The notes: generated by a model from the letters alone, not told the origin. A stretch of 64,000 bases of DNA from an uncultured Ignavibacteriales bacterium (GCA_903843135.1 CAIMOS010000126.1:17201-81200); one strand, 5' to 3'; shown: positions 22,074-55,890, numbered from the stretch's first letter. Numbers and translations are program-made.

Positions 22074-23816
22074 ATGTTAGAAAATCTAAAGAATCTCTTC
22101 CTGGGAAAGAATCCGTTCATTCCTATTGAAAAGCGAATGTTCATTCTCCTGTTAATAATGGCGATTCTGCTTGGGATTATCGGAAGCACCATTAACATAA
22201 TACTGGATTTGCCCGCCATTCTGATCATCGCCGGATTCTCCATCCCCCTGATGATGCTCGTGATTGCCTACCGGGTACTGATTCAAAAAATTGAACGGAA
22301 TTACTCATCTTTAATATTTTGGGTTTTCATCGCCTTTTTTCCGTTGCAGTATACGCTTAACGGCGGACGGAATTCCAATAATTTAACTTTACTTTATGTG
22401 GCAATTACGCTTTTATTTTTTATACTTTCCGGTAAATACGGCAAGTGGTTTTTTGCCGTGCTTGTTACAGAGTACGTGACGCTTAGTATTATCGAATTTA
22501 TGTATCCTCAGATAATAAGCGGATATGCAAGCGAAACCCAAAGGTTTATTGATGTCCTAAGCGGGAACCTGCTGTATCTTTTTATTCTTTTTGTCGCTCT
22601 TTTTATCATAAAGAATGTTTATAATTTTCAGATTCAGCGCGGTATCGTTCAGAATGATCACCTTAAGAATCTGAATAAACAGCTTGCCGAAAATGCCCTG
22701 ATGATCAGGGAAATCAACAGGCAGCTCGAGGAGCGGCGGCAGCAGGTTTCACAAGTACTCGACAGCGTTCCGGCCGTTGTGCTGATAATACAAAACGAAA
22801 ACATTGATAAGGTGAATGAACACGCCGCCGAAATTCTCGGTATTGGCCCTGAAAAATTGACAGGGCAGGGGATTTACAATTATATGTCAGAAGATTCGGC
22901 CTTAATCTTCCGGGAGAACATCCGGAAAGGGAGTAACGGAGAAGAAGTACCGCCTTACGAAATTAATTTGAAATTGCCTCCAAAAGCATTTCTGGTCCAT
23001 ACAACGCCCGTTGCCCTTGCGGTAAACTATCCGGTTTTGATAGTGGTTCTTACGAATATAACAGAACTGAAAGAAAAAGAAAAAGCCCTGAAATCCTACT
23101 CAGACAGGATTGAGAGGGACAATACTGCCAAAGCCAGGTTTATTTCGATACTTTCGCACGATCTGCGGAGCCCATTCCAGGGACTGCTGGGCCTGAGCGA
23201 GATGCTGGCCGAAGAGAGCGGTTTAATGGAGAAGGAGAAATTAAAGCAAGTCAGCGGGTCGCTGCATAACGCGATTCAAACCCAGTATACGCTTCTTAAT
23301 GACATTCTGACCTGGACAGAATTCCAGAGCGATAAAGCGAAGATGGATGTTATAGAAATTGAGTTTTACGAACTGGTAAATTCAGTGATCAGAATTTTTG
23401 ATTCTGCGGTTAAAATTAAATCGCTAAAGATACTGAACCTTGTCCCTGAAAATCTTATAGTAAAAGGGGATGTGAAAATGCTCAGCCTTGTTTTACGTAA
23501 TCTTCTGAGTAACGCTATAAAGTTCAGCAACAATGATGAAGGGATTATAATCGAATACACTGCTTCTCCTCTGAAGCACGTATTTGATATTATTGATAAA
23601 GGAGTTGGGATGAGTCCCGCCCTGCTTGAGAAAATTCGGGCGGGCCAATGGGGATTATCGCAGAAGGGCACGGGAGGAGAGAAGGGTTCCGGTATCGGCT
23701 TGAGCCTGGTGAGAGAAATATTAAGCAAACACGGCGGCGCTCTTGAGATTGAGAGCGGGCCGGATCAAGGCACAACTGCACGGTTTTCTCTGTCACGTCA
23801 GAGTATTTTATTATAG
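22074..23816 (+). CDS. Membrane-embedded sensor histidine kinase (multi-TM N-terminus, PAS, HisKA, HATPase)
   Basis: 580 aa. There are about 6 N-terminal TM helices and one PAS-like segment. The H-box is FISILSHDLRSP, the N-box is LRNLLSNAIKF, and GSGIGL follows. Confidence 0.85.
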   Translation: MLENLKNLFLGKNPFIPIEKRMFILLLIMAILLGIIGSTINIILDLPAILIIAGFSIPLMMLVIAYRVLIQKIERNYSSLIFWVFIAFFPLQYTLNGGRNSNNLTLLYVAITLLFFILSGKYGKWFFAVLVTEYVTLSIIEFMYPQIISGYASETQRFIDVLSGNLLYLFILFVALFIIKNVYNFQIQRGIVQNDHLKNLNKQLAENALMIREINRQLEERRQQVSQVLDSVPAVVLIIQNENIDKVNEHAAEILGIGPEKLTGQGIYNYMSEDSALIFRENIRKGSNGEEVPPYEINLKLPPKAFLVHTTPVALAVNYPVLIVVLTNITELKEKEKALKSYSDRIERDNTAKARFISILSHDLRSPFQGLLGLSEMLAEESGLMEKEKLKQVSGSLHNAIQTQYTLLNDILTWTEFQSDKAKMDVIEIEFYELVNSVIRIFDSAVKIKSLKILNLVPENLIVKGDVKMLSLVLRNLLSNAIKFSNNDEGIIIEYTASPLKHVFDIIDKGVGMSPALLEKIRAGQWGLSQKGTGGEKGSGIGLSLVREILSKHGGALEIESGPDQGTTARFSLSRQSILL

Positions 23817-29006: not shown

Positions 29007-29393
29007 TTATTTACTCATTCCGAGGAACATACCCCCGAAATACGGGATTAGCCAGATGAGCCATACGATAATACTGAACCGGTGAAAACTTGTTCTCATT
29101 CTCTCATCCTTTTTAATTACAACCCTGGCAGCCCATACAGCGTGGAAGAGCATAAGCCACAATGCTATCTGTCCGGTAAGAGTATGAGGTTCGGTGATAT
29201 CGAAACGCCCATCCGCGAGCAGGTGCATAGCATAGGTCCCCGAAACATCAAAAATAAATCCGGTGAAGAAAGCGACAGTGTGCCACGGTTTAAGGTACCT
29301 CGCAATTCTCTCTGCCCAAACTCCGAGAGAGTAAAAAAGCAACGCGAGGGTTATTAAGACACTTGAATAAATAATCATTGGATTCATAGGCAA
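29007..29393 (-). CDS. Small 4-TM membrane protein (resembles the TIGR03987/HsmA-type family)
   Basis: 128 aa with four hydrophobic helices and conserved His/Trp-rich faces. The family assignment is from memory only. Confidence 0.55.
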   Translation of the reverse strand: MPMNPMIIYSSVLITLALLFYSLGVWAERIARYLKPWHTVAFFTGFIFDVSGTYAMHLLADGRFDITEPHTLTGQIALWLMLFHAVWAARVVIKKDERMRTSFHRFSIIVWLIWLIPYFGGMFLGMSK

Positions 29394-29535: not shown

Positions 29536-30111
29536 GTGACTGAAATCATCCCGCGCTGGGAATGGCGCACGTTTACAAACGATCTCGGCATTGCCGAAGC
29601 AAATATCAGGATGCATCCTGAGAGCAGGTCCCGTGAAAGCGATGAAGTTTACATTCTGTCGGAAGTAAGCCCGGATAACACGAAAATACGTAACGATATG
29701 ATGGACGTCAAAACTCTCCGGCAGGTAAATGAGGACCGCCTGGAACAATGGTTCCCCTCGATGAAAACCGCTTTTCCGCTCTCCGTGGAAGATATCATTA
29801 AAGTTTTTGAGTGCTTCAGGGTTGCTGTTCCCCATCTTGACCGTGATGAATACAGCAGTACTCAGTTCCTCGATGAGATCCTGCCGCAATCTAAATTATT
29901 AAAAGCAGTAACAGTTCATAAATCGCGCACAGGTTTTTCGATCAATGACTGTTCAGTTGAGATAGCCGAGATCAGGACGGAGGGGAAGGTTATCAAAACC
30001 GCAGCTGTTGAAATGGAAGAGCCTGAACAGGTAATCGAAACAGTCCGGGAACTTAAACTGGATGTTTTCCCGAACATAAATTATTTACGCGGACTGCAAA
30101 AACTTTACTGA
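29536..30111 (+). CDS. Divergent CYTH-like (triphosphate tunnel fold) protein, copy 1
   Basis: 191 aa with a GTG start. It shows an alternating charged/hydrophobic beta-strand pattern. The N-terminal strand RWEWRTF sits where CYTH has ExExK, and the C-terminal K.R.GF.I....VEIAE......K.AAVEME resembles the closing strands of the CYTH tunnel. It is a paralog of 34629..35213. Confidence 0.55.
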   Translation: MTEIIPRWEWRTFTNDLGIAEANIRMHPESRSRESDEVYILSEVSPDNTKIRNDMMDVKTLRQVNEDRLEQWFPSMKTAFPLSVEDIIKVFECFRVAVPHLDRDEYSSTQFLDEILPQSKLLKAVTVHKSRTGFSINDCSVEIAEIRTEGKVIKTAAVEMEEPEQVIETVRELKLDVFPNINYLRGLQKLY

Positions 30112-30129
30112 ATAAAAAAGGACCCTTTT

Positions 30130-30597
30130 ATGGCGCAGGAGATCGAGAGAAAATTTTTAGTTAAAGGTGAATTCAAACATCTCGTAAATAAGTCTGTAAG
30201 GATCGTGCAGGGATACCTCTGTTCGGTACCGGAGAGGACCGTCCGCGTACGGATCAAAGGAGATAAAGGCTATATCACAGTCAAAGCCCTTGGGAACAGC
30301 AGCGGAATTTCCAGATATGAATGGGAGAAAGAAATTCCGGTTGGAGATGCTGAAGAACTGCTCAAAATTTGTGAACCTGGTGTAATCGACAAAGTGAGGC
30401 ACCTTATAAAATCAGGCGAACATATTTACGAAGTCGATTTATTCAACGGAGAAAATGAAGGGCTGACACTGGCTGAGATCGAACTTTCCGCCGAGGATGA
30501 ACATTTCGAAAAACCGGAATGGCTCGGTGAGGAAGTTACCGGAGATCTCAGGTATTACAATGCAATGCTGGTGAAGAAGCCTTACGGCAAGTGGTGA
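30130..30597 (+). CDS. CYTH-domain protein (triphosphate tunnel metalloenzyme, inorganic-triphosphatase-like), copy 1
   Basis: 155 aa. The canonical N-terminal EIERKFLV (ExExK) is present, followed by R.R, E.E.E. and LAEIEL strands. Size and layout match bacterial TTM/NeuTTM-type enzymes. Confidence 0.85.
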   Translation: MAQEIERKFLVKGEFKHLVNKSVRIVQGYLCSVPERTVRVRIKGDKGYITVKALGNSSGISRYEWEKEIPVGDAEELLKICEPGVIDKVRHLIKSGEHIYEVDLFNGENEGLTLAEIELSAEDEHFEKPEWLGEEVTGDLRYYNAMLVKKPYGKW

Positions 30598-30610
30598 AGT
30601 TAACCGGCGG

Positions 30611-31954
30611 TCAGTTCCTTGTCTTCTCGAGTTTGCTGTTCAATGTCGTGCGGGGGATTCCAAGAAGTTTTGCCGCCTGACTTATATTTTCGTTGCTCTT
30701 CTTAAGCGCCCATTCTATTATTTCTTTTTCTCTTTCCTGAATATACTCTTCAAAAGGAGGGTAGGAATCCGGAGTTTTACCGGATAGATTAAATGCTAAC
30801 CTCGTTTCGGGAAAATCAAGCATCGAAAGATCGATTGAACCAAGGAATGAGAGTGCGATGATCCGCTGCACAATATTCTCAAGCTCCCTTACGTTGCCGG
30901 GCCAGTTATAGTTGAGCATCCGGGCATAAATCTCTTCAGTCACAAGTTTGAGTTTTGGTTCACCTCCGTACTTCCTGAAAAAATATTCCACTAGTACGGG
31001 AATATCCTCTTTCCTCTCGCGGAGCGGCGGGATTTTAAGCGGAATAATATTCAGCCTGTAATAAAGATCTTCACGGAACTCTTTCGATTCAACTTTCTTC
31101 TTCAGGTCAACTTTTGTAGCAGCGATGATCCGTACATCGATCCCAATATTTTCAGTGCCGCCGACTCTTGTCAGTTCTCTTTCCTGGATCACGCGGAGGA
31201 GTTTCACCTGCATTATCATCGGAATATCATCAATGTCATCTAGGAATAAGGTACCCTGATTCGCACGCTCAAAATAACCAGTGTGCCTTTTCAGCGCGCC
31301 GGTGAACGAACCCTTTTCGTGCCCGAACAATTCGCTTTCCAAGAGTGTTTCGGGAATACTGGAGCAACTAACTACAACGAAATTTTCATTTTTACGCGGT
31401 CCTGCCTGATGCAGCGCCCGGGCAACCAGTTCTTTACCGGTGCCGCTTTCACCTTCGATAAGTACCGTGGTATCGTTTTGTGCGATCTGCCTGATCATAT
31501 CTGTTAGTTTTTTCATTCCTGCGGAGTTCCCGATGATCATCCGGTTTTCAAGAAGGTCAATCCTTTTCTTTAATTCGATATTCTCTTCGAGGACAACCTG
31601 GAACTGTGTTATCTTCCGCAAGATGGAAATCAATTCTTCCGGGGAGAAAGGTTTAGTCAGATAATCATAAGCCCCGATCTTTAGCGCTTTAACAGCAGTT
31701 TCGACCGTTGCAAAAGCAGTAATAAGAATTACTTTGCAATCCGGTTTAAGAGTCATTACAGTTTCCAGAATTTCCATTCCGGAGAGTTTTGGGAGCCTTA
31801 GATCTGTGATTACAATTTCGGGCATCTCATTCCTGAATATTGCCAGGCCCTCTTCACCGTTTTCGGCAGCATACACGTCAAAACCTTCACTCTTTAAAGT
31901 GTTCGAGAGAGAGATGCGTGTTATTTTTTCGTCTTCAATAATTAAAAGTTTCAT
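30611..31954 (-). CDS. Sigma-54-dependent response regulator (REC + AAA+ + Fis-type HTH; NtrC family)
   Basis: The REC domain starts MKLLIIEDE. Walker A is GESGTGKE, and the GAFTGA-type loop is GSFTGA. ESELFGHEKG and the R-finger region are present, and the C-terminal HTH is ISQAAKLLGIPRTTL. The start is set at ATG 31954, one base after the HK stop. The longer ORF to 32050 overlaps the kinase. Confidence 0.9.
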   Translation of the reverse strand: MKLLIIEDEKITRISLSNTLKSEGFDVYAAENGEEGLAIFRNEMPEIVITDLRLPKLSGMEILETVMTLKPDCKVILITAFATVETAVKALKIGAYDYLTKPFSPEELISILRKITQFQVVLEENIELKKRIDLLENRMIIGNSAGMKKLTDMIRQIAQNDTTVLIEGESGTGKELVARALHQAGPRKNENFVVVSCSSIPETLLESELFGHEKGSFTGALKRHTGYFERANQGTLFLDDIDDIPMIMQVKLLRVIQERELTRVGGTENIGIDVRIIAATKVDLKKKVESKEFREDLYYRLNIIPLKIPPLRERKEDIPVLVEYFFRKYGGEPKLKLVTEEIYARMLNYNWPGNVRELENIVQRIIALSFLGSIDLSMLDFPETRLAFNLSGKTPDSYPPFEEYIQEREKEIIEWALKKSNENISQAAKLLGIPRTTLNSKLEKTRN

Positions 31955-31955
31955 T

Positions 31956-33413
31956 TCAGTTTTCAACCGGCAGATAAACCTTAAATGTTGTTCCCTTTCC
32001 GGGGGCGCTCTCGACTTCAATCTTGCCGTTGTGCGATTCGATGATGCCAAGACAAACAGATAGCCCGAGCCCGGTACCTATGCCAATTTCTTTAGTTGTA
32101 AAAAACGGATCAAAAATTTTCTTCAGAGTTTCGGGATCAATGCCTGAACCGTTATCACTGACTTCAATGAGAATTCTGCCGCCTGTAACTCCGGAAGTTG
32201 AAATTGTAATTGTGCCTTCTTTTTCAATAGCATCAAAGCTGTTCAGCAGAAGGTTCATTATTACTTCCTGGAAAAGATGGTAATCTATTTTGACGGGCGG
32301 TAAGTCTTTCCCATAATTCAGCTTGATTTGAAGTTTATTGTCCTTCAGGCGGTAATCAAAAAGCGTAACAACCTTATCAATTGATTCATTCACGTTTATC
32401 GTTGTTTCCGATTTTGACTGCTGGCGGGCGAAACCGAGAAGTTTTTTTACGACTGTCTCGATATTTTCGATTCCTTCATTGATAAGTTCAGAGTACTCTT
32501 TTGTCTGGACCACATTTCCCGGATCTTTTTTAATCGCGTAAAGACAGGACTTGATTCCGTTCAGAGGGTTGTTAACCTGGTGCGCCACACCTGAGGCAAG
32601 CCTCCCGATGGAAGCCAATTTTTCAGCCTGATAAACCTGTTTTTGTGCTTTCTCAAGATCAGCTTTTGAATTCTCCAGCCTTCTCTTCAGCAATCCGAAA
32701 TTATGATAAAGAAAACCTATCTCATCGTTTTGTACTGGAAGTGAAATGTCCCTGTCAGAAAAGAGATCGATCTTATCCATTTCAACTACAAGTTTCTCGA
32801 GGGAGTACGTAAGGTGGTTCACGGAGTAATAAAGTATCAGAAGGACAACCGAAGTAAGTATAATTGTAGATAATAACAAAATCAAAAAGAGGCTGCTTAT
32901 TTCGTCCCGTATAGGCTGCGCATCGAAACCAATTTTAATAGAACCCCAGTTCTTGCCTGAGAGCAGCATCGGCAGTGTACACTGAATTGTCCAGCCGGAT
33001 TCGGGGTGGTTAAAAATACTCACAACCCCGGCCTGTTCTTTCCCTTCATCAAATTTATCATCGTGCGGAGTGTTAATTCCGGTTCCGCTGACCGAGTGCG
33101 ATGCGATCGGAATAGCGTTCTGGTCGTAAACGGTGACGTATTTTACATTTTCGAGATGGTTAATAAAATCATTGATATATGTCTCAAGAATTTTCTCTTT
33201 CTGAAAAACGCTGTTCTGTTCAAAGATTAGCGCGTCAACGATAGTGACGGTAAAAGTGCGGCTTACCGCGTATGCATTCTCCGTCTCCTTGCTGATGATA
33301 ATATCGCGCCACTGAAGAAGTATAACAACAGAAATCAGAAGCATTAACGTAACAAGTACTGAACCTGTTGAAAACAGAATGCGTGTTTTTAGGCTTGACT
33401 TCAGTATAAACAT
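31956..33413 (-). CDS. Sensor histidine kinase with periplasmic domain (TM - about 150-aa ectodomain - TM - HAMP-like - HisKA - HATPase)
   Basis: 485 aa. The H-box is LASGVAHQVNNPLN (NtrB/AtoS style), the N-box is LLLNSFDA, and the G-boxes are DNGSGI and GTGLGL. Confidence 0.9.
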   Translation of the reverse strand: MFILKSSLKTRILFSTGSVLVTLMLLISVVILLQWRDIIISKETENAYAVSRTFTVTIVDALIFEQNSVFQKEKILETYINDFINHLENVKYVTVYDQNAIPIASHSVSGTGINTPHDDKFDEGKEQAGVVSIFNHPESGWTIQCTLPMLLSGKNWGSIKIGFDAQPIRDEISSLFLILLLSTIILTSVVLLILYYSVNHLTYSLEKLVVEMDKIDLFSDRDISLPVQNDEIGFLYHNFGLLKRRLENSKADLEKAQKQVYQAEKLASIGRLASGVAHQVNNPLNGIKSCLYAIKKDPGNVVQTKEYSELINEGIENIETVVKKLLGFARQQSKSETTINVNESIDKVVTLFDYRLKDNKLQIKLNYGKDLPPVKIDYHLFQEVIMNLLLNSFDAIEKEGTITISTSGVTGGRILIEVSDNGSGIDPETLKKIFDPFFTTKEIGIGTGLGLSVCLGIIESHNGKIEVESAPGKGTTFKVYLPVEN

Positions 33414-33420
33414 AACTGCC

Positions 33421-34383
33421 TCACTTACCTATCTGGCGCAGAATGTTGTAGTCGCTGTCCGAGGCTTCAACAAAACCGTAGATAAATTCGCTGTCCCATT
33501 CTTTCGTAATTATCTGATATGCTGGATTTCTGCCGTTAACATCCATAAGTGACTTTTTAATGGCACTCACTATGCTGGCATCGAAATTTGGGGCCACTAC
33601 TATCGGGGATGTCGGGATGGGGTCCGAATATAAAATAACTCTTATGGAATCCCTGTTCGGAAGATTTTTTACCAGAAACTCCCTTGTTACACCGGCATCG
33701 TAGTAACTGTTGTAGACCTGATATATAACGCTCTGGTGATGAGGGAAATTATCTGCGGAAGCAAGATCGGAGTAGTTAATGCCGTATTTCGGGAACTCGT
33801 GCCTGATAAGCCAGTTTGCCGAGAATGATTCTTTGGAAGGAAGCGCCAGCCTCCGGCCTTTAAGATCTTTGAGGTTATATAAGTTAGATGAACGTTTTGT
33901 AAATAGTACGGTCCTGGAGTAGGGTTCGAAATTTTCGTTCAGCGGCTTTAAAATCGGGAGTACGCCGTACTGTTTATGAGCGTCAAGATATACGTAGGAT
34001 CCAAGAAATGCGGCGGCGGTTTCACCGTTTATCAGCATCCGGACTGCCTCACTGTAATCTGTACTTAGTTTCAGTTCAAAACGGTAACCGGTTTTTGAAG
34101 TCATATAATTCAAAAGAGGCTGGTAACCCCTGTAGATTATATTCGGCGGGTAACGGGATATAACGCCGATATAGACGAGCGGCTTTTTCAGATCAGCTTC
34201 GCTCGGCGGGACAGCGGCATTGCTGACTTTATACTCCCCCGAAATATTGAGCGAATATTTGTAAAACAAAACAGTGAAGACAGATGCTGTTACAAACATC
34301 AGAATCAGCACTGTTACCAGTTTTTTTGTGATCATTTTAAGTCTGGAAAAATCAATTTTATTCAAATACATTGAAAATTCCAT
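33421..34383 (-). CDS. Membrane-anchored PhnD-like (phosphonate-type) periplasmic solute-binding protein, sensor partner of the kinase
   Basis: It has an N-terminal TM anchor followed by a PF12974-like pattern (IGVISRY.P......YQPL..Y......Y.FEL....Y...V..L..GE...AFLGS..Y). It lies 7 bp upstream of the HK gene. An alternative start is at 34335. Confidence 0.75.
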   Translation of the reverse strand: MEFSMYLNKIDFSRLKMITKKLVTVLILMFVTASVFTVLFYKYSLNISGEYKVSNAAVPPSEADLKKPLVYIGVISRYPPNIIYRGYQPLLNYMTSKTGYRFELKLSTDYSEAVRMLINGETAAAFLGSYVYLDAHKQYGVLPILKPLNENFEPYSRTVLFTKRSSNLYNLKDLKGRRLALPSKESFSANWLIRHEFPKYGINYSDLASADNFPHHQSVIYQVYNSYYDAGVTREFLVKNLPNRDSIRVILYSDPIPTSPIVVAPNFDASIVSAIKKSLMDVNGRNPAYQIITKEWDSEFIYGFVEASDSDYNILRQIGK

Positions 34384-34446
34384 ACCAAGATATTTTCATA
34401 GCTAATTGTCAATTTTTCGACGTTTGGTAACGATAAATTCAGGAAG

Positions 34447-34465
34447 TGACGATGAAAAGTCGTCA
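34447..34465. promoter_or_regulatory. Inverted repeat TGACGA-N7-TCGTCA, candidate binding site for the adjacent sigma-54 activator
   Basis: Read directly from the sequence. It is flanked by the direct repeat AAGTGAC x2. It lies in the divergent intergenic region, about 100-118 bp upstream of the TGGTAC element. Confidence 0.3.
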
Positions 34466-34564
34466 AGTGACTAAATTTCGTCATTTTACATATCTACAAT
34501 ATGACTTTTTCTGAAGAAAAGCAATAATTAACGGGCGAATATGGGCTTTTTTCCCGTGATATAG

Positions 34565-34579
34565 TGGTACGATAATTGA
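34565..34579 (+). promoter_or_regulatory. Candidate sigma-54 (-24/-12)-like element upstream of the nine-gene operon
   Basis: The sequence is TGGTAC-gataa-TTGA with correct GG-to-12 spacing. It shares TAATTGAA with the 5251 element. It has two departures from TGGCAC-N5-TTGC, including the -12 C. It sits 50 nt before ATG 34629. Confidence 0.25.
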
Positions 34580-34628
34580 ATTAAAATTGTGATTAAAAAC
34601 TAACAAATTATATATAAGGAAGTTCACT

Positions 34629-35213
34629 ATGGCCGAGATAATACCACGTTGGGAATGGCGCACATTTACAAATGATCTGGGTAAAGCTGAGGAAAACATC
34701 CGGAAGCACCCCGAAGGAAAAACCCGCGAAAGTTCTGAAGTCTATATTTTATCTGAAGTCAGTATGGATAATACTAAAGTCCGTGACGATTTAATGGATA
34801 TTAAAACTCTTCAGCAGGTAAACGAAGACCATTTGGAATTGTGGCTCCCCATAATGAAGGGCTCGTTTCCGCTTCCCGTGGCAGAGATCGAGAAGGTCTT
34901 TAAGTGTTTCAGAGTGTCCCTGCCAAAGTTCGAACGAACCGAATACACCTTCCGCCAGTATATCGATGAAGTGATTAAACCATCCAAATTATTAAGAGCC
35001 GTAGACGTTCATAAAAAAAGAACCGGTTTCACAATTAATAATTGTATCGTAGAGATAGCAGAAGTCACGGTCGACGGAAAAGTGATCAAAACAGCGGCGG
35101 TTGAGATGGAAGATCCCGCATTAGTGATAAAGACCGTCAGGGAATTAGAATTAGATACTTTCCCGAATGTTAATTACCTCCGCGGCCTGAAAAATATGGT
35201 AGGAATGAAGTAA
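34629..35213 (+). CDS. Divergent CYTH-like protein, copy 2
   Basis: 194 aa. By eye about two-thirds identical to 29536..30111, and the first 15 aa are nearly identical (M.EIIPRWEWRTFTNDLG). Confidence 0.55.
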   Translation: MAEIIPRWEWRTFTNDLGKAEENIRKHPEGKTRESSEVYILSEVSMDNTKVRDDLMDIKTLQQVNEDHLELWLPIMKGSFPLPVAEIEKVFKCFRVSLPKFERTEYTFRQYIDEVIKPSKLLRAVDVHKKRTGFTINNCIVEIAEVTVDGKVIKTAAVEMEDPALVIKTVRELELDTFPNVNYLRGLKNMVGMK

Positions 35214-35223
35214 GGATATAATT

Positions 35224-35703
35224 ATGGCAAATGAAATAGAACGTAAATTTTTAGTAAAAGGTGAATTTAAGAATCTCGTCAGCAAGTCGACCCGCATTGT
35301 TCAGGGTTATCTGTCATCGGTTCCCGAAAGAACGGTCAGAGTGCGCATAAAAGGCGATAAGGGGTTTATCACCATCAAAGGTATCGGTAATGCTTCGGGA
35401 GCCTCAAGGTATGAGTGGGAAAAAGAAATTCCGTCTTCAGAAGTTGAAGAACTGCTCAAGATATGCGAACCGGGTGTTATCGATAAGACGCGTCACCTGG
35501 TAATCAGCGGGAACCATACTTTCGAAGTTGATGAGTTCTACGGAGAGAACGAAGGCTTAACACTTGCAGAAATCGAACTTAGCTCTGAAACTGATTCATT
35601 TAATAAGCCTGAATGGCTTGGTGAAGAAGTTACAGGGGACACTAAGTACTACAACTCGATGCTGATGAAGAACCCGTTCAAAAACTGGGGAAAGAATAGT
35701 TAA
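35224..35703 (+). CDS. CYTH-domain protein (triphosphate tunnel metalloenzyme), copy 2
   Basis: 159 aa with the EIERKFLVKGEF start. By eye about three-quarters identical to 30130..30597. Confidence 0.85.
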   Translation: MANEIERKFLVKGEFKNLVSKSTRIVQGYLSSVPERTVRVRIKGDKGFITIKGIGNASGASRYEWEKEIPSSEVEELLKICEPGVIDKTRHLVISGNHTFEVDEFYGENEGLTLAEIELSSETDSFNKPEWLGEEVTGDTKYYNSMLMKNPFKNWGKNS

Positions 35704-35826: not shown

Positions 35827-37422
35827 ATGACGCATTTTGATCCGCTCGATATGCACAATTACCGTATCGAGAAACTTCCTAAAAGAGAAAAGACAAAGGT
35901 CCAGAAAATACTCGCGGTTATCGGCCCTGTGCTTGCGGCCGCTGCATTTATTTTACTCAGCTACGTCTTTAAGTTTCAGTTTTTACAATCCATTAATCCC
36001 GCAGATCTTGTGTCGGATGCAGCGAAGGACGCTTTTGATAAAATAGGCGCCGAAGCCTTCAGCAGAAATAATCATATTATGCTTGGGATATTCACGGCAT
36101 CCATTATACTGTGGATGACGGAAGCGATTCCTAACTACCTTACGTCGCTGATACTAATAATAAGCCTGGTGCTTACAGGAGTTCTTCCGGAAAAGAACGC
36201 TTACGCGCAGCTCGGGCATACGGTTATGTGGCTTAATATAATGTCCTTTGTGCTTGCAAGTATGCTCGTTGCAACAGGGCTGGCAAAACGTTTCGCTTTA
36301 TGGTTGATAGTAAAATTCGGAAAAAACGCTAGTACCATTTTTATAAGCTTCCTCATTATAAATGTAATTCTGTCAGTATTTATTTCTGCCACGACTGCAA
36401 AGGCAGCAATATTGCTTCCTATTTTTATGGTTATCGCGGCCATTTACGGAGCTACCGGCGGTGAGAACAAAAACAAATTCGGAAGAAGCATCGTGCTTCA
36501 GAATTTGCTTCACATAAATATCGGAGCGAGCGGGTTCCTGACAGGCTCGGGCGCGAATTTACTTGCCGCGGCACTGATCGGCGGCGCTATCGGCGGAAAG
36601 ATATTTTTCTCTGACTGGATGATGGCGATGTTCCCCGTGATGCTTTGCCTGATGTTCCTGGGCTACATCCTGGCGCTCAAAGTGTTTTTCCCGCTCTCGC
36701 CGGAAGAAAGCGTGCCGCAGATTGAAGGCGGAATGCAGCGCCTGAAAGATGAATATATAAAACTCGGCAAGATGAGCCTGATTGAAATAAGAGCGGCAAT
36801 TATTTTTATTGCTATTCTGACTTTGTGGACAACGGATAAAATGCACGGTATCAGCCCGACCGCGGTTGCTTTTCTCGGAGCGATTATTGCACTGCTGCCG
36901 CGCATCGGAATTGTTAAATGGAACGATGTTGATATCCCCTGGCACCTGATGCTGTTTTCAGCAGGCGCGTATGCGCTGGGCGCGGGGCTGGACGCAACGG
37001 ATCTTCCTTTACTTTCGATTAAGTCTCTTTTTGACGCGCTTGGCATCGGCAGCGAAACACATTTCTCAGTGCTTTATCTTATCCTTACCGGAGTAATGAT
37101 CTTCAGCGCCGTCTTCTTCCAGTCAAAAACTATGCGCGTGATGATCTTTATTCCAATTGCGATCGGGGTTGCAAACCGTTTTGGGTTCAGTATAATAAGC
37201 CTTGCTCTCCCTGTTGCGTTTATGACAGAACACGTTTATGTATTGCCCTTTAACAGCAAACCTGCCGCTTTACTGTATGAAACCGGCCATTATACAATGT
37301 CTGATACATTTAAGTTTGGTTTCACAATTATGGTTGCTGCCTGGCTGCTAAATATAGTCGCCGGAGAAACCTGGTTCAGATTTTTAGGGATTACGCCAAA
37401 CGGCGTATTCGGTTTATTCTAA
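35827..37422 (+). CDS. DASS/SLC13-family anion permease (divalent anion:Na+ symporter superfamily)
   Basis: 531 aa with about 12-14 TM. Duplicated hairpin-type motifs are present (ISATTAKAAILLPI and a second-half equivalent), a layout typical of SLC13/ArsB-NhaD-fold permeases. Confidence 0.75.
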   Translation: MTHFDPLDMHNYRIEKLPKREKTKVQKILAVIGPVLAAAAFILLSYVFKFQFLQSINPADLVSDAAKDAFDKIGAEAFSRNNHIMLGIFTASIILWMTEAIPNYLTSLILIISLVLTGVLPEKNAYAQLGHTVMWLNIMSFVLASMLVATGLAKRFALWLIVKFGKNASTIFISFLIINVILSVFISATTAKAAILLPIFMVIAAIYGATGGENKNKFGRSIVLQNLLHINIGASGFLTGSGANLLAAALIGGAIGGKIFFSDWMMAMFPVMLCLMFLGYILALKVFFPLSPEESVPQIEGGMQRLKDEYIKLGKMSLIEIRAAIIFIAILTLWTTDKMHGISPTAVAFLGAIIALLPRIGIVKWNDVDIPWHLMLFSAGAYALGAGLDATDLPLLSIKSLFDALGIGSETHFSVLYLILTGVMIFSAVFFQSKTMRVMIFIPIAIGVANRFGFSIISLALPVAFMTEHVYVLPFNSKPAALLYETGHYTMSDTFKFGFTIMVAAWLLNIVAGETWFRFLGITPNGVFGLF

Positions 37423-37446: not shown

Positions 37447-38085
37447 ATGTTTCTAAAAAAGACAAAGAAACTTGAGGCCCAGATTGATGAATATCTTGAT
37501 CTTGTCATCAAAGGCGGACTGGTATTCAAGCTCGGAATAAAATGCTATTTTGACGCCCAGCCTGATGACTTTGAAGGCCACTTAAAAGACCTCCGCAAAA
37601 TAGAAGAGCGCGCGGATGACCTGAGGCGGAACATTGAGATAAAACTCTACACGCGCACTTTAATTCCTGAGGCAAGGGGCGATGTGCTCGGTTTGCTCGA
37701 AAGCTGCGATAAAGCCCTTAATATAACCGCGGATACACTCCTGGAATTTTCAGTGGAAATCCCGAATCTGTTCCCTGAACTAAAATCTGATTTCCTTGAG
37801 ATTGCTGAGAGTTCAATCTCCTGCCTCGAAAACACTGTAAGCGGTATCCGCTCCTATTTCAAAAATATCGATGCTGTAAGAGACTATATTATTAAAGTGC
37901 AGTTTTATAAAAAGGAGACCAATAAGATTGCGGAAAAGATAAAGCGGACAATTTTCAGGTCCGAGCACGAACTTAGCAATAAGATACACGCGCGATATTT
38001 CGCATTTCATATTGAGAGGATCGCGGAACAGTCGGAAGATGTTTGCGATAAACTTTCTATCGCTATAATTAAAAGGTTCGAATAG
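37447..38085 (+). CDS. DUF47 / PhoU-like phosphate transport regulator (TIGR00153 type)
   Basis: 212-aa all-helical protein immediately upstream of PiT, with a 2-bp gap. This is the classical DUF47-Pit pairing. Confidence 0.75.
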   Translation: MFLKKTKKLEAQIDEYLDLVIKGGLVFKLGIKCYFDAQPDDFEGHLKDLRKIEERADDLRRNIEIKLYTRTLIPEARGDVLGLLESCDKALNITADTLLEFSVEIPNLFPELKSDFLEIAESSISCLENTVSGIRSYFKNIDAVRDYIIKVQFYKKETNKIAEKIKRTIFRSEHELSNKIHARYFAFHIERIAEQSEDVCDKLSIAIIKRFE

Positions 38086-38087: not shown

Positions 38088-39578
38088 TTGGATATCTCAG
38101 TCTGGTTTTACATATCCAGCGGATTATTTCTTGGCTGGTCGCTAGGCGCCAACCACGCCGTGAATGTTTTCGGAACCGCGGTGGTTTCAAAGATGGTGAG
38201 ATTTCGGACGGCGGCCATAATAGCGGGCGTCTTTGTTATACTTGGTTCAGTGGTCAGCGGAGGAGGAACGACAAAAACAATTACAGATCTCGGCGCAATC
38301 AACGCTATCGCGGGCAGCTTTTCTGTTGCGCTTGCCGTCGGTATATCTGTAACGCTTATGACGAAGGCCCAGTTGCCCGTTTCGACATCGCAGGCAGTGA
38401 TCGGGGGAATTATCGGATGGAATTTATTTACAGGCTCACCAACAGACTACAGTTCACTCAACAAGATTTTATTCAGCTGGATTGCAAGCCCTATTATTGC
38501 CGCGATTTTCGCTTTTCTCATCTTTAAGCTTATCAAGCATACTGTTCTGAAATGGAGGATTCACCTCCTTGAACTGGATAACTACACGAGGGTCGGATTA
38601 ATAGTTGTCGGAGCGCTGGCGTCCTACTCTCTCGGAGCCAATAATATTGCCAACGTAATGGGTATGTTCAGTTCAGCGCCTCTTTTCAGCGATCTTAGTA
38701 TTTCGGGCTTCCTGAAAATCACCGGCGTGGAGCAGTTGTTCTTCCTTGGCGGACTGGCGATTGCAATCGGTATTTTTACTTACGGCGACCGCGTGATGGA
38801 AACCGTAGGCACTGACCTTTACAAGATTTCGCCGATAACCGGATTTGTCGTAGTCCTTTCAGAGTTTATTGTGCTTACTCTGTTTACATCCCAGACCCTG
38901 GAAGCGTTCCTCCTGAGGAATAATCTGCCGTCTTTTCCACTTGTTCCGCTCTCTACCACACAGGCGTTCATCGGCGCGATAATCGGTGTTGGTATGGCGA
39001 AAGACCCTCTGTCTATTGATTTCAGGGTGTTAGGGAAAATAGCAATCGGCTGGGTGATTGCCCCTTTAAGTGCAGCGCTGATCACTTTTATTTCGCTATT
39101 CTTTATTCAGAATGTATTTGAACAGAAAGTAGTATACCCGGTGCCGTACGAAATAACCTCTACGGTCATCACGGAGATGAAGAGCGAAGGAATAGATACG
39201 TCCGGATTAGCGGATATTACAGGGAAGAGGTTTTTTAATAAAAAGAACTTCAGGGATGAATTATACGCAAGGAATAAATACACGAACAAAGAAATGTTTA
39301 CCATTTTTAATCTTGCCCTTGTCGACAGTTTTAAAGTTGATACTGTACTGTTCAGGAGTTATCCGGAACTTTACCGTTACACCAGTGATCAGAAAGCTGC
39401 AATTATGACCAGGCAAGGAGAAGCGTTCAGCCATAAGATTGATTTTCATAAAGCAGTTCTCTCTGATTCCGCCTGGAAACAGTCCGGGAATAAACTTTTT
39501 GACAGGGAACTGGAAGACAAAATAAATGCAATTGAAGAACTCTTCAGAGTTAAACCGGATAAAAAACAAATAAAATAA
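38088..39578 (+). CDS. pit: Inorganic phosphate transporter, PiT (PHO4) family, with about 150-aa C-terminal cytoplasmic extension
   Basis: The two PiT signature repeats GANHAVNVFGTAV and GANNIANVMG are present, with about 10 TM and a TTG start. A hydrophilic tail runs from about 39125. Confidence 0.85.
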   Translation: MDISVWFYISSGLFLGWSLGANHAVNVFGTAVVSKMVRFRTAAIIAGVFVILGSVVSGGGTTKTITDLGAINAIAGSFSVALAVGISVTLMTKAQLPVSTSQAVIGGIIGWNLFTGSPTDYSSLNKILFSWIASPIIAAIFAFLIFKLIKHTVLKWRIHLLELDNYTRVGLIVVGALASYSLGANNIANVMGMFSSAPLFSDLSISGFLKITGVEQLFFLGGLAIAIGIFTYGDRVMETVGTDLYKISPITGFVVVLSEFIVLTLFTSQTLEAFLLRNNLPSFPLVPLSTTQAFIGAIIGVGMAKDPLSIDFRVLGKIAIGWVIAPLSAALITFISLFFIQNVFEQKVVYPVPYEITSTVITEMKSEGIDTSGLADITGKRFFNKKNFRDELYARNKYTNKEMFTIFNLALVDSFKVDTVLFRSYPELYRYTSDQKAAIMTRQGEAFSHKIDFHKAVLSDSAWKQSGNKLFDRELEDKINAIEELFRVKPDKKQIK

Positions 39579-39630: not shown

Positions 39631-40929
39631 ATGAAAAACAGACACAATTACTTTGCGGTTATTCTGATCGCAATAGTTATGATGAGCTTCGGAAATCTTC
39701 TGGCTCAGGATTCAAAGGTTCCTGGCGGGAAAGAAGCGAAGCCTCTTGGTGCTGAAGTGCGCAACGGTAAACTTGTATTTGAATCTGAAGACGGCGATTT
39801 CCGCTGGTGGTTCGATTCAAGAATCCAGTTTGACGGAGCGATGTATTTTGGTACGGATTTTGTCTCCGAAACTAAAAATGCGATGAGTAACGGTTTCTTC
39901 TTCAGAAGAGCGACTTTCGCGTTGAAGGCAATACTCTATAAGGACTGGGAAGCTGAATTCGATATGGATTTCCGTGAAGACTCGGACGTGGATGAGCAGA
40001 ATGAGATGCGGGATATGTGGATCAAATACAATGTACCTGATATGAATATGTCTTTTATGGTGGGACATTTCAAAGAGCCGTTCGGACTTGAGAGAATTAA
40101 CAGTTCACGGTTGCTTACTTTTCTTGAAAGGTCTTCACTCTCAAGCGCAATCCCGATGGGAAGAAGGGTCGGCGCTTTAGTTCGTTATTGGACGGACTGG
40201 TTCCAGGTATCTGCAGCTCTAATGGGCCACGAACCCGGTACACGCATTGATAAAGGCCAGAGAGATGAAGGGTACTCAACAAACCTCAGAACCAGCTTTG
40301 CTCCGATCAATGATTTCGGGCATACACTTCATCTCGGAGTCGCCGGTTCTTATAAAATTCCTGACGCGACATCTGAGCTGCGCACAAATACAATCGAGGT
40401 AAGTTCTAGAACCGAATCATATATGTTTGACCCCAAATTCTTGCATACCGGTGATATTGCAGACGTAAACTATTATCTGCGCGGCGGCGCTGAATTTATG
40501 TATATCAACGGTCCGCTCTATTTACAGACTGAAGTAATGGGAATGCAAGTCGAGAGATTTTACGGCAAACCGCAGGTTAAACTCGGCGGCGGATACATTA
40601 CTGTTGCATATATGCTTACCGGTGAGACCCGTTACTACTATGTAGATGAAGGCGAAGTCGGACCGATTGAAAAACCGCTCAATTCTTGGGGCGCTTTAGA
40701 ACTTGCTATGAGATACACACACACCGATCTGAATGACCTTGAAGCAGGCGTCAAAGGCGGTATGGTTAATCAGTATACATTAGGATTAAACTATATTCCG
40801 AATCCGAATATTAAAATACAACTTAACTATTCTTTGGTAAATCTTGATCAGTACGCAACCAGGAAGGGAAACCTTATTGGTGATGATGACCACGCGTTCT
40901 TACAGATCAGATTCCAGGCTTCATTATAA
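39631..40929 (+). CDS. Phosphate-selective porin O/P family outer-membrane protein
   Basis: 432 aa with a signal peptide. The Porin_O_P-like pattern is F.W.FDSRIQ.D, FF.RRA....K......W.AEFD.DF, KEPFGLE and a terminal aromatic-rich beta strand. Confidence 0.8.
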   Translation: MKNRHNYFAVILIAIVMMSFGNLLAQDSKVPGGKEAKPLGAEVRNGKLVFESEDGDFRWWFDSRIQFDGAMYFGTDFVSETKNAMSNGFFFRRATFALKAILYKDWEAEFDMDFREDSDVDEQNEMRDMWIKYNVPDMNMSFMVGHFKEPFGLERINSSRLLTFLERSSLSSAIPMGRRVGALVRYWTDWFQVSAALMGHEPGTRIDKGQRDEGYSTNLRTSFAPINDFGHTLHLGVAGSYKIPDATSELRTNTIEVSSRTESYMFDPKFLHTGDIADVNYYLRGGAEFMYINGPLYLQTEVMGMQVERFYGKPQVKLGGGYITVAYMLTGETRYYYVDEGEVGPIEKPLNSWGALELAMRYTHTDLNDLEAGVKGGMVNQYTLGLNYIPNPNIKIQLNYSLVNLDQYATRKGNLIGDDDHAFLQIRFQASL

Positions 40930-40949: not shown

Positions 40950-41870
40950 ATGAGAAAATTATTTTTGGCCTTACTTTTTATTCTTCCTATGGTGTTCACC
41001 TCTTGTTCAAGGGATGAACCTGCATTACCGGTTACTCCTCCGCCTCCTGTTGTGGAGAAAATAAAAATCAATGAAGTGTACTCACGTGGCGATACGACTG
41101 ATGCCGACTGGATTGAAATCTATAATACAGGAAGCAGTGCGATTGATATCTCCGGCTATAAGATTTACGACAATGGAGGGCAGAGTGGTTCTAAACCGAA
41201 AAAAGTATTTCCTGCTGGGACAGTTGTTGCCTCAAACGGATTCTTTGTAATTACGGTTGACGATACCGCCTCTTCCGGATTTGGACTTTCCAGCAGCGGT
41301 GAGCAAGTCTGGCTCGAAAAGGCAGACGGTACGGTTATCGACTCTGTGGTTTTTCCGGCGCTTGGCATAGATTCTACTTATGGGAGAAGAGGCGACGGAG
41401 CCTCTAATTGGGAAATCATTTTCCCGAAAACAAAAGGCATAACAAACGGCGGCGTCAACACTCAGCCTCTGGTAATGAACGAAATATTCTCGCGCGGAGC
41501 GGATCCGAATTTTGACTTCATTGAAATTTACAATCCCAACACCTTTGCTGTGGATCTGAATGGTTATAAAATTTATGACGGCGGCGGAAATGCGGGAACT
41601 AAACCTAAAATGCTGTTCCCCGCCGGCGCTTCAGTTCCAGCCCGTGGATTCTATGTTATAGTTGTTGACGATGCCGCGGTGGAAGGGAACTTCGGAATCG
41701 GCAGCGGCGGAGATGAAGTTTGGTTTGAAAATCCCACCGGTATAGTGATCGATCACCAGATCGTTCCTGCAATGCCGGTCGTGACCACCTCGTATTGCAG
41801 AATTCCGGATGGAAGCACCACCTGGCAAATCGCAAGTACGATAACCAAAGGGCAGCCAAACCAGCCCTGA
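40950..41870 (+). CDS. Lipoprotein with two lamin-tail domains (LTD)
   Basis: The lipobox is VFTSC. There are two repeats of INE.YSRG......D.IEIYN......D..GYKIYD.GG..G.KPK..FPAG..V...GF.VI.VDD. Confidence 0.8.
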   Translation: MRKLFLALLFILPMVFTSCSRDEPALPVTPPPPVVEKIKINEVYSRGDTTDADWIEIYNTGSSAIDISGYKIYDNGGQSGSKPKKVFPAGTVVASNGFFVITVDDTASSGFGLSSSGEQVWLEKADGTVIDSVVFPALGIDSTYGRRGDGASNWEIIFPKTKGITNGGVNTQPLVMNEIFSRGADPNFDFIEIYNPNTFAVDLNGYKIYDGGGNAGTKPKMLFPAGASVPARGFYVIVVDDAAVEGNFGIGSGGDEVWFENPTGIVIDHQIVPAMPVVTTSYCRIPDGSTTWQIASTITKGQPNQP

Positions 41871-41912
41871 TTTTTTTAACGGAGGGCCGGCTAATTCCGG
41901 TCCTCCGATAAT

Positions 41913-42704
41913 ATGATTAGCAAACAAACGATGAAAAAAAATATTTCTATTCTCTATTTCACTGCGATTGTAGTCATCATAATTTACTTGCTTCTGCAGG
42001 CAGGCTGCTCGAGAAATGAACCGTATGTTGCTGTGACACCGTCCACGATTCAGAAAATTATTCCCATCAACACTTATGTGTTGGATGTTTCTGAGCCTTC
42101 CGGTCTGGCGTATAACGCAGTAAATAATACATTGATGGTTATCTCCGACAGCCATCCGGAAATCTATGAAATCAGCCTTAACGGGACTACGCTGAACACG
42201 ATACCCGCTTCCGGCAGTGATATGGAAGGCATAGCCCTTTCTAAAAACTGCGATACAGTTATTGTTGTTGAGGAAAGGATCAGAAGCGTAACATCATTTG
42301 CCCTCAACGGAGCCAAATTAGACACCATTATTGTAGATGTTGCTGTCCTTGGAAATAGCGGACTTGAAGGTGTAACTTTCAATCATACGGGCAGACAAAT
42401 GTTCGTCCTGAATGAGAAAGATCCAAGAATGCTGTTATGTTATGAAAATTTAACTAAGAAATGGCAGAAAAATCTTGATTACACCGGGGATGTTTCGGAT
42501 GTTTGTTATGAAGAATCCACAGGTTTTTTGTGGGTAATAAGTGATGAATCGAGGATGATATTAAAACTGTCATCCACTGGAACACTTATCAAACAGTGGG
42601 AAATTCCATTTTCAAAAGGGGAGGGAATTGCAATTGTTGGGGATAAGATTTACGTGGTAAATGACCAAGACGGAAAAATGTATGTCTTTCATAAACCAAA
42701 TTAA
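41913..42704 (+). CDS. SdiA-regulated (YjiK-like) beta-propeller lipoprotein
   Basis: The lipobox is LLQAGCS. The block EPSGLAYN...NTL.VISD...EIYEISL.G......P..GSDMEGIAL matches the PF06977-type pattern. A probable alternative start is at 41931. Confidence 0.7.
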   Translation: MISKQTMKKNISILYFTAIVVIIIYLLLQAGCSRNEPYVAVTPSTIQKIIPINTYVLDVSEPSGLAYNAVNNTLMVISDSHPEIYEISLNGTTLNTIPASGSDMEGIALSKNCDTVIVVEERIRSVTSFALNGAKLDTIIVDVAVLGNSGLEGVTFNHTGRQMFVLNEKDPRMLLCYENLTKKWQKNLDYTGDVSDVCYEESTGFLWVISDESRMILKLSSTGTLIKQWEIPFSKGEGIAIVGDKIYVVNDQDGKMYVFHKPN

Positions 42705-42743
42705 ATATGTGTTATAATTCAGAATTATTTTAACGGAGATATC

Positions 42744-44009: not shown

Positions 44010-44774
44010 TTAATTATTTATCACGATACCGTTGCTGAAGATCTCCAGCGTTTGCTGACGGCTGTTTACAACCGCGAATGAATTCTGCTCAGGATTAAAA
44101 GTCATACCGCTGTAATTTTTGCCGGGAAGGTGGATGCGCTGAAGTTCTGCCTTTAAGGGGTTCCATCTGTAGATCATTTCAGACTGATAGCTGAGAAGGT
44201 AATAATTCCCTTTGGTGTTATCGAAATAAATTTCAGAGGCATCCGGAGTGAAATAGAAATTATACTGCTGTTCAATGTTCCCATCGGAATTCATTTTTAT
44301 CATTGAAGGAGGGGCAGCCTCATTCAGTACATAAAGTGTACTTCCTTCACCGCAGAATATTCCGCCCGGTATTTTATTTCCACCTTTTCCGCCGGCAATA
44401 TGCAGCCGTTTCTTAACTTCACCGCTGAGCGAGAGATTCACCAATTCTCTTTTCTTTTTTTCTGTGATCCATAGTGTGCCGGAACTGCGCTCAAGAGAAA
44501 TTGAAGTAATTCTGTTACCCGTATAGGGCAGAACTTCAATAACATTACCTTCAAGGTCCGTTCTAACTATCTTGCTGTTGCCGCCGTCAACGATCCAGAA
44601 ACCGGTATAGTCGATAGTGTAAGTTATCCCGGCGGGATTATCAATGTTCAGCTTAAGTTCCTGAATCTGAGTTAATGCGGGCGAAATAATTTGCCCGTCG
44701 CTTTGCCTGCAGGCAAGGTTAACCAACATCATCGCAGCAGCCAGACCAAACAAGCGTCCATATCTGAAAAACAT
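44010..44774 (-). CDS. Beta-propeller lipoprotein, distantly YjiK/NHL-like
   Basis: The lipobox-like sequence is LVNLAC. Blade-like segments repeat (NPAGITY...G.W.VD......I.R.DL.GNV). It is convergent with the LTD operon. Confidence 0.5.
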   Translation of the reverse strand: MFFRYGRLFGLAAAMMLVNLACRQSDGQIISPALTQIQELKLNIDNPAGITYTIDYTGFWIVDGGNSKIVRTDLEGNVIEVLPYTGNRITSISLERSSGTLWITEKKKRELVNLSLSGEVKKRLHIAGGKGGNKIPGGIFCGEGSTLYVLNEAAPPSMIKMNSDGNIEQQYNFYFTPDASEIYFDNTKGNYYLLSYQSEMIYRWNPLKAELQRIHLPGKNYSGMTFNPEQNSFAVVNSRQQTLEIFSNGIVINN

Positions 44775-50491: not shown

Positions 50492-50538
50492 TTTATTATA
50501 ATCTTAATATTTTAATTTAAAAATTAACCCGTTTAAAT

Positions 50539-55884: not shown

Positions 55885-55890
55885 AGGGCG

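Follow-up and report, generated by a model that had tools for sequence, protein, structure and literature searches.

Turnover of polyphosphate (polyP) and triphosphate in bacteria is usually ascribed to PPK, PPX/GppA, CYTH enzymes and CHAD binders. Here we describe a two-gene cassette that occurs twice in a stretch of 64,000 nucleotides (nt) from an uncultured Ignavibacteriales bacterium (GCA_903843135.1, CAIMOS010000126.1:17201-81200), referred to below as the window. The second gene of each cassette, B (B1 and B2 in the two copies), encodes an ordinary member of the CYTH family of triphosphate tunnel metalloenzymes (TTMs; PF01928), which includes NeuTTM/NE1496 (2fbl), CthTTM, SaTTM, ThTPase and AtTTM3. 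The first gene, A (A1 and A2), encodes a protein that resembles these enzymes in its predicted eight-strand tunnel fold, its helix order, what appear to be collinear KxR, K, KxR, E and ExE positions, and a C-terminal helix that contains aromatic residues. It differs from them in carrying R-x-E-x-R, in having no significant similarity to PF01928, in two additional helices that separate strands 5 and 6, and in never standing alone, since in the examined loci it always lies ahead of a hydrolase gene. We consider a companion role of A in polyP and triphosphate hydrolysis to be well supported.

Other described systems share some of these features. Arabidopsis TTM1 and TTM2 have a TTM fold without the ExExK motif and are still active on a shorter substrate, pyrophosphate (PPi; cluster 7 in PMC8233210); because they are enzymes despite the missing motif, its loss in A need not mean a loss of function. 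Unlike A, they are eukaryotic, carry a fused phosphoribulokinase/uridine-kinase-type domain, match PF01928 and also lack the ExE motif, and no relation between them and A was detected. In the VTC complex, a catalytically inactive Vtc2/Vtc3 TTM domain stacks on the active Vtc4 TTM domain to form a heterodimer (bioRxiv 10.1101/2023.01.27.525886), a precedent for pairing an active with an altered TTM in polyP metabolism. However, VTC is membrane-anchored, SPX-regulated and synthesises polyP, whereas A also partners the non-TTM enzyme Ppx/GppA and has no VTC match in Pfam. The nearest functional analogy is offered by CHAD modules (PF05235), accessory polyP-binding units that are fused to CYTH (as in YgiF) or encoded in operons with polyP kinases and phosphatases (bioRxiv 10.1101/567040; PMC8233210). 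The genomic logic of A is the same, but CHAD is an all-helical bundle with conserved histidines, while A is predicted to be a beta-barrel with mixed acidic and basic conserved residues; no CHAD gene was noted among the scanned neighbours of A. Finally, Ppx/GppA enzymes (PF02541) of about 305 amino acids (aa) adjoin A or are fused behind it, and A itself has no PF02541 match and a different predicted fold.

An ordinary CYTH enzyme behind a predicted tunnel barrel

An earlier note on this DNA, made from the sequence alone, had described two cassettes with the same gene order and short spacers, and all of its coordinates correspond exactly to open reading frames (ORFs; Table 1), with 18 nt between A and B in copy 1 and 10 nt in copy 2. 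Its estimates by eye, about two-thirds identity between the first genes and three-quarters between the second, were close to the measured values of 68% for A1 and A2 (BLASTP E 5e-102; 67.5% at the DNA level) and 77% for B1 and B2 (BLASTP E 3e-92; 69.5% at the DNA level), identities that we judge to lie far beyond chance. Between A and B proteins, no mutual sequence similarity was detectable. Nonsynonymous divergence (dN) between the copies is 0.22 for A and 0.20 for B, and synonymous divergence (dS) is saturated (undefined by NG86), so that the cassette duplication must be old. Both copies are still under purifying selection, and A1 retains all residues that are at least 90% conserved across the A family.

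The second genes, in which the EIERKF hallmark of TTMs had been recognised, begin with M-A-x-EIERKF and both match the Pfam CYTH model PF01928 (E 3.8e-13 for B1 and 8.4e-14 for B2; 50.1 and 52.2 bits, the gathering cutoff being 23.2). PDB matches of B1 included 3typ (E 8e-17) and 2fbl, the Nitrosomonas NE1496 protein (E 2e-16), both aligned end to end; in the alignment with 3typ the motifs EIERKF, QGYL, RxR, K, KxR and ExE are all in place. It has been reported that NeuTTM and CthTTM belong to CYTH cluster 2 and that NeuTTM-type enzymes are among the inorganic triphosphatases (PMC8233210). B is thus an ordinary CYTH enzyme of the metal-dependent kind and, judged by this similarity, probably an inorganic triphosphatase, which would cleave triphosphate (PPPi) to PPi and phosphate (Pi).

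The first genes gave a different picture at the sequence level. A1 and A2 had no match in Pfam, NCBIfam or the PDB (phmmer/hmmsearch), and neither they nor 60 diverse members of the family matched PF02541 (Ppx/GppA), PF05235 (CHAD) or PF09359 (VTC). A HMMER search of 1.84 billion cluster representatives recovered 1342 proteins with E <= 1e-3, of which 800 reached E <= 1e-10, each of the 1342 standing for a cluster at 50% identity, from Ignavibacteriota, Acidobacteriota, Calditrichota, Spirochaetota, Clostridia, Atribacterota and high-GC (probably actinobacterial) sequences. We found no description of the family in the literature, and the CYTH classification of PMC8233210 cannot contain it because that classification was built on PF01928. 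Homologues are listed in public sources as hypothetical proteins, and some are labelled exopolyphosphatase/GppA by JGI; this label, which the present analysis corrects as misleading for A, probably stems from the A-Ppx fusion proteins described below. A thus adds a large and widespread family (at least 1342 clusters) that the domain databases used here, Pfam and NCBIfam, do not recognise.

Structure prediction placed the family among the tunnel folds. Independent AlphaFold2 models, one for each paralogue and built from different alignments, reached a mean per-residue confidence (pLDDT) of 90.5 and a predicted template-modelling score (pTM) of 0.81 for A1, and 95.1 and 0.87 for A2. Each model consists of eight long strands with five helices, arranged as b1-a-b2-b3-b4-b5-a-a-b6-b7-b8-a-a. 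When the models were compared with the PDB by Foldseek, the first 31 matches of A1 and the first 33 of A2 were exclusively TTM/CYTH structures, including ThTPase, AtTTM3, SaTTM, 1yem, 2dc4, 2gfg and 3sy3 (E 4e-6 to 7e-4, probability 1.0), and the next were the TTM-like Mediator subunits Med18/20 and the Cet1/Pct1 RNA triphosphatases. A diverse A profile searched against the PDB gave sub-threshold matches to two of the same CYTH structures, 1yem (E 0.13) and 2dc4 (E 0.44). The models therewith provide good support for A as an eight-stranded tunnel barrel of the TTM/CYTH type. The description of the first gene as CYTH-like in the earlier note accordingly finds support in the predicted fold, on which both models and all top Foldseek matches agree, and none at the sequence and profile level; as no significant homology was found at that level, the relation of A to CYTH rests on the predicted fold and the collinear motifs. 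Because A has neither the ExExK strand nor a match to the CYTH hidden Markov model (HMM), we do not class it as a CYTH family member and regard it instead as a hitherto undescribed form of the TTM fold.

A constant place before an exchanged hydrolase

To describe the genomic setting of A, we surveyed relatives with an exact PRWEWRTF motif, taking one genome per species and keeping the best 80 of 589 loci. The search was built on a 17-sequence alignment, the 80 loci come from nine or more phylum-level groups, and their ORFs were searched with A, with B and with a Ppx profile. Two loci end at a contig edge; in each of the 78 informative ones, the gene after A, in the same orientation, encodes a condensed-phosphate hydrolase or is separated from such a gene by at most a short insertion, so the pairing reported for the window by the earlier note is syntenic elsewhere. 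The hydrolase was a CYTH protein in 42 of the 78 and a Ppx/GppA protein in 36, and the two kinds of partner were mutually exclusive across the surveyed loci. Of the two principal classes of condensed-phosphate hydrolase, every informative locus therefore links one genetically to the A family.

CYTH-type loci were found in Ignavibacteria/Melioribacteraceae, Calditrichia, KSB1 and Krumholzibacteria. The CYTH gene was directly adjacent in 36 of the 42, with a gap of 6-15 nt where this was measurable (there were two overlapping ORF calls and one run of N), and one of the 42 CYTH copies was fragmentary. In five Calditrichia loci, a gene for a DUF498 protein (PF04430) of 133-140 aa lies between A and the CYTH gene (coordinates for loci of this type in Table 1). 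Ppx-type loci came from Acidobacteriaceae, Atribacterota, Clostridia, Spirochaetia and one Bacteroidota metagenome-assembled genome (MAG). Here the partner has about 304-309 aa and matches PF02541 (E 2e-54 and 1e-63), and the gap after A was at most 24 nt in 34 of the 36 loci (one of them an overlapping ORF call, -12 nt) and 200 and 344 nt in the others. At least 13 of the 20 longer A representatives carry A at the N-terminus of a Ppx/GppA protein (nine by Pfam, four by the DxGTNS motif), while an A-CYTH fusion was absent from the same 20. Many of the fusions, one of which (P0243) is 806 aa long, are frameshifted high-GC gene calls, and a further sequence among the 20 is probably a merged ORF with a sulfate-permease fragment.

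The CYTH partner itself varies. In a neighbour-joining tree the B proteins fall into two deep clades, which phmmer searches separate by their distance to B2 (E ~1e-40 versus ~1e-80). The Melioribacteraceae carry the second CYTH clade, although their A proteins are sisters of those paired with the first; this is seen by comparing loci L018, L021, L026, L028 and L029 with L005 (B genes at ~6595-7068), in which closely related A proteins stand beside CYTH proteins of different clades. Such pairs indicate in-place replacement of the partner gene. Judged from these loci, the partner has been exchanged repeatedly, with A and its place before the hydrolase unchanged, which speaks for A as a companion of condensed-phosphate hydrolases in general. 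Taken together, the synteny, including A-Ppx adjacency and fusion, gives good support to the proposal of the earlier note that the members of the pair function together.

A protein of ~313-330 aa with no Pfam match also recurs close to A-Ppx pairs, in Acidobacteriaceae as well as in an Atribacterota MAG (Table 1), the Atribacterota version having a hydrophobic, signal-like N-terminus; it may be a further uncharacterised component.

An altered first strand and a retained set of charged residues

The earlier note had pointed out that the catalytic ExExK strand is replaced by PRWEWRTF in the first genes, and this holds for the family at large. A1 and A2 begin with M-x-EIIPRWEWRTF and carry the CYTH-like closing strand VHK(S/K)RTGF...VEIAE, also as noted before. 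Across 60 A members, the most distant at ~30% identity, E9 and R11 never vary, and R7, F13, E37, Y39, K50, R52, K59, E70, W72, K129, R131, E142 and E159 are at least 90% conserved. Strand 1 of A thus reads P-R-W-E-W-R-T-F, or R-x-E-x-R where CYTH has E-x-E-x-K. In strand 8, the residue following E159 by two positions, 161, is Glu in A1 and A2 but variable across the family. On the predicted strands the conserved positions alternate (i/i+2), and their order follows that of the B motifs ExExK, RxR, K, KxR, ExD and ExE. A relaxed hhalign alignment, statistically not significant (P 0.25), gives the strand-by-strand correspondence: K50-x-R52 of A lies opposite R-x-R of B, K59 opposite K, K129-x-R131 opposite K-x-R, E142-x-A opposite E-x-D, E159-x-E161 opposite E-x-E, and N-Y in the last helix opposite Y-Y.

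It has been reported that ExExK serves in metal coordination and substrate binding, and that in the strand-8 ExE the first Glu holds metal 1 and the second metal 2 (PMC8233210). Compared with these sites, A has Arg for the first strand-1 Glu, keeps the metal-1 Glu (E159) and is variable at the metal-2 Glu; its conserved basic positions are retained, and one extra basic residue is added. This pattern suggests a tunnel in A that has kept its capacity to bind a phosphate chain, probably together with a single metal, and is impaired in canonical two-metal hydrolysis. The family thereby constitutes a natural experiment on ExExK, in which E-to-R and K-to-R have long been fixed and the other charged positions retained.

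We favour, tentatively and at a little under an even chance, the reading that A binds tri- or polyphosphate as a substrate-capturing or regulatory companion of the adjoining hydrolase, with little two-metal hydrolysis of its own. Each cassette would encode two separate, complete tunnel-fold proteins, of which A, from an uncharacterised sister family of CYTH with the fold in common, would be a dedicated companion of condensed-phosphate-degrading enzymes, a CYTH triphosphatase or a short Ppx/GppA exopolyphosphatase depending on the lineage. A would capture the tri- or polyphosphate chain, probably in complex with one metal, inside a separate tunnel of more basic character, and would then serve the adjacent hydrolase as a substrate-capturing or regulatory subunit; it would itself carry out little or no canonical two-metal hydrolysis. 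If A alters the substrate range or processivity of the short Ppx or CYTH enzymes in this way, the in vitro studies made so far on these enzymes by themselves would give an incomplete picture.

Several observations weigh against this reading or parts of it. The 60 diverse A members matched no Pfam model even at E <= 1, PF01928 included; comparison of the A family with a CYTH profile of 41 neighbouring B proteins by hhalign was not significant (P 0.25, as above), the end-to-end match returned by hhalign -glob being meaningless, and hmmsearch of the B proteins with the A profile gave less than 10 bits. The A models superpose on TTM structures with TM-scores of ~0.45-0.55 and a root-mean-square deviation of 5-8 A. 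That the conserved residues of A line the tunnel is suggested by strand periodicity and not by geometry. Since the best-scoring 80 of 589 loci all carry PRWEWRTF, the locus sample is biased towards such members, and more divergent ones lie outside it. Lastly, the four or five conserved acidic residues of A fit a catalytic metal site equally well, which makes the non-catalytic part the weakest element of the favoured reading. A regulatory pseudo-enzyme, as the earlier note had suggested, is a possible role for A, although the nearly full set of charged positions that it keeps is atypical of a dead enzyme.

The last points bear on the alternative that A is an active hydrolase which complements its partner, either as a pyrophosphatase finishing PPi or as an endo-polyphosphatase making short chains and new ends, with Arg7 in place of metal 2. 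We regard this as unlikely, although several points speak for it. Both types of partner, CYTH triphosphatase and Ppx, leave PPi behind, so a PPi-cleaving A would complement either of them, and A shares an operon with one or the other. The conserved E9, E37, E70, E142 and E159 make up nearly the whole charged constellation of a TTM, which dead enzymes usually lose, and AtTTM2 is a pyrophosphatase in vitro even though AtTTM1/2 have neither ExExK nor ExE (PMC8233210). Against it, the first Glu of ExExK, which binds metal (PMC8233210), is Arg in at least 90% of A members. The metal-2 ligand, the second Glu of the strand-8 ExE, varies across the family, and the fusion of A to Ppx speaks more for physical cooperation than for a second enzyme that diffuses freely. 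A housekeeping pyrophosphatase is, moreover, normally present in cells already.

A bolder proposal is that A forms a one-metal or metal-2-independent tunnel, with Arg for a metal ligand, that threads condensed-phosphate chains and either cuts them internally or feeds them to the exo-acting CYTH or short Ppx enzyme, and so represents a new class of bacterial polyP-handling protein. We hold this to be distinctly unlikely. If it were true, A would be the missing bacterial endo/processivity component of polyP breakdown, and would mark operons for the import and use of external tri- or polyphosphate as a phosphorus source.

A probable phosphate-related operon around copy 2

The genes around copy 2 (Table 1) have exactly the order that is conserved in Ignavibacteria: a divergent unit of PhnD-like protein, histidine kinase and sigma-54 regulator on one side, and A, B, DASS, PhoU_div, PiT and porin on the other. 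Aminicenantes have this gene set in a different arrangement (A, porin, CYTH, PhoU_div, PHO4, DASS), and the tripartite transporter TctABC replaces DASS in Calditrichia-type, Spirochaetia and Atribacterota loci. Of 43 CYTH-type loci, 31 carry a sigma-54-type -24/-12 element (nGGCAY-N5-TTGn, at most two mismatches) that starts 48-93 nt ahead of A. The element is absent from all 36 Ppx-type loci, and 3.4% of random sequence windows of 150 nt contain it. No such element lies upstream of A1, and copy 1 is thus presumably expressed under other conditions. Scans for terminators and for the sigma-70 promoter consensus gave nothing above shuffled expectation.

From this arrangement we infer a single sigma-54-dependent operon for phosphate acquisition, made up of copy 2 and the transport genes that follow it and controlled by the divergent two-component system. 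Its promoter would be driven under the control of the PhnD-like protein, the histidine kinase and the NtrC-type regulator, and the A-B pair would serve phosphate acquisition or mobilisation, probably by converting tri- or polyphosphate, whether imported or from internal stores, to usable phosphate. The loci thereby point to a conserved, probably sigma-54-controlled operon that may use condensed phosphates under phosphate scarcity.

As an observation on gene calls, the ORF called for the response regulator runs 95 nt into the kinase gene owing to an upstream TTG. Its receiver domain begins at residue 36, and the real start is probably M33 at 31954, with one base between it and the kinase stop.

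The same setting allows that A has no mechanistic link to the hydrolase and that the two are neighbours merely as members of one phosphate-starvation regulon. The entire neighbourhood is indeed phosphate-related, and in Aminicenantes the porin gene separates A from CYTH. We nevertheless think this quite improbable, because CYTH or Ppx comes directly after A in most of the 78 loci while other operon genes lack such constant adjacency, because A still adjoins the hydrolase gene in Acidobacteriaceae, which lack the transport genes there, and because A-Ppx fusion proteins recur.

Still less probable is that A is a polyP-forming or phosphotransfer TTM like Vtc4. Pairing of synthesis with degradation genes is known from E. 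coli, where ppk and ppx share an operon, and the tunnel of A would be more basic than that of a canonical CYTH enzyme. The Vtc4 TTM domain, for its part, polymerises polyP (PMC9911596). PF09359 was, however, unmatched in the 60 A members, the operon context is phosphate uptake and so apparently scarcity, when synthesis is least expected, and a synthase fused to an exopolyphosphatase in one chain would be futile. Scarcely tenable, finally, is the idea of the earlier note that A and B form a single heteromeric tunnel with an active site built from both chains: their tight linkage (spacers of 10-18 nt) and joint retention in both copies and in 42 other loci speak for it, but in each model a single A chain already closes all eight strands of the barrel, B spans an entire CYTH domain and can be aligned over its whole length with 2fbl and 3typ, which are stand-alone proteins, and the partner is interchangeable, A standing equally often beside the unrelated Ppx/GppA fold and sister A proteins beside swapped CYTH clades, which argues against a tunnel shared by A and CYTH.

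Table 1. Coordinates of the two cassettes, of the genes around copy 2 and of additional genes in related loci. Positions without a locus handle count from the first nucleotide of the window; those with a handle (L) refer to the surveyed locus.
Feature	Position	Strand	Description
A1	29536-30111	+	191 aa, GTG start; divergent TTM-fold (CYTH-like) protein as predicted, RWEWR in strand 1; lineage-specific paralogue
B1	30130-30597	+	155 aa; canonical CYTH/TTM enzyme (EIERKF), NE1496-like
NtrC-type response regulator	30611-32050	-	receiver, sigma-54 activator (Sigma54_activat) and HTH_8 domains (Pfam)
Membrane sensor histidine kinase	31956-33413	-	HisKA and HATPase_c domains
Periplasmic phosphonate/phosphite-type binding protein (PhnD-like)	33421-34383	-	PF12974 E 1.9e-50; first gene of the divergent regulatory unit
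Sigma-54-type -24/-12 element	34565-34579	+	TGGTACGATAATTGA; begins 64 nt upstream of the A2 start codon
A2	34629-35213	+	194 aa; divergent TTM-fold protein as predicted; orthologue of the copy conserved across Ignavibacteria
B2	35224-35703	+	159 aa; canonical CYTH/TTM enzyme
DASS-family anion symporter	35827-37422	+	PF00939 E 1.4e-54; downstream of B2
PhoU_div (DUF47) phosphate-transport regulator-like protein	37447-38085	+	PF01865 E 5e-17
PiT/PHO4 inorganic phosphate transporter	38088-39578	+	PF01384 E 3e-62
Phosphate-selective porin O/P	39631-40929	+	PF07396 E 1.3e-52
DUF498 gene between A and CYTH	L035 6649-7050; L042 6652-7053; L046 1566-1967; L052 4583-5005; L055 1207-1620; L083 6601-7002		Calditrichia-type loci
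Protein of ~313-330 aa	L038 7680-8651; L041 9609-10598; L057 10356-11351; L066 4947-5936; L071 8907-9878; L077 8907-9884; L040 5022-5963		

History of copy 1 and other observations in the window

The two copies differ in their distribution. A2 is up to 94% identical to A proteins of other Ignavibacteria, whereas for A1 the database holds its own sequence at 100% in 12 contigs and a next-closest match of 72% identity; copy 1 was seen in this genome only. In neighbour-joining trees A1 and B1 each branch at the base of their Ignavibacteria clades, which indicates that they were duplicated or acquired as one unit. We also considered a recent tandem duplication, which is ruled out by the saturated dS together with the basal branching of A1 and B1 in the Ignavibacteria clade. 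The closest of the 80 loci (L001, with an A protein 94% identical to A2) has both flanks in common with the window, including the flanking BNR-repeat gene and the regulator, and lacks copy 1 as well as the small membrane-protein gene that adjoins it. In the window, copy 1 is convergent with the response-regulator gene, with 13 nt between the stop codons.

The small gene directly upstream of copy 1 (29007-29393, minus strand) encodes a 128-aa membrane protein with a weak cytochrome b561-like match (E 0.006). It had no homologue in any of the 80 related loci and may have arrived together with copy 1.

Past the porin gene, the regions 40950-43898 (plus strand) and 44010-44774 (minus strand) encode two Lamin-tail-domain proteins, one with a type IX secretion system (T9SS) sorting domain, and two SdiA-regulated/phytase-like beta-propellers; these may be secreted enzymes of the same regulon that scavenge organic phosphate. 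A second sigma-54-type -24/-12 element, TGGCACATTAATTGA, lies at 5251-5265 on the plus strand, ~290 nt upstream of an ORF at 5554. The window is also unusually rich in sensor histidine and hybrid kinases (8982-11054, 15790-18114, 22074-23816, 44993-46987 and 48848-57546), among them a 1617-aa multi-PAS protein and two paralogues of ~550 aa with receiver domains at opposite ends.

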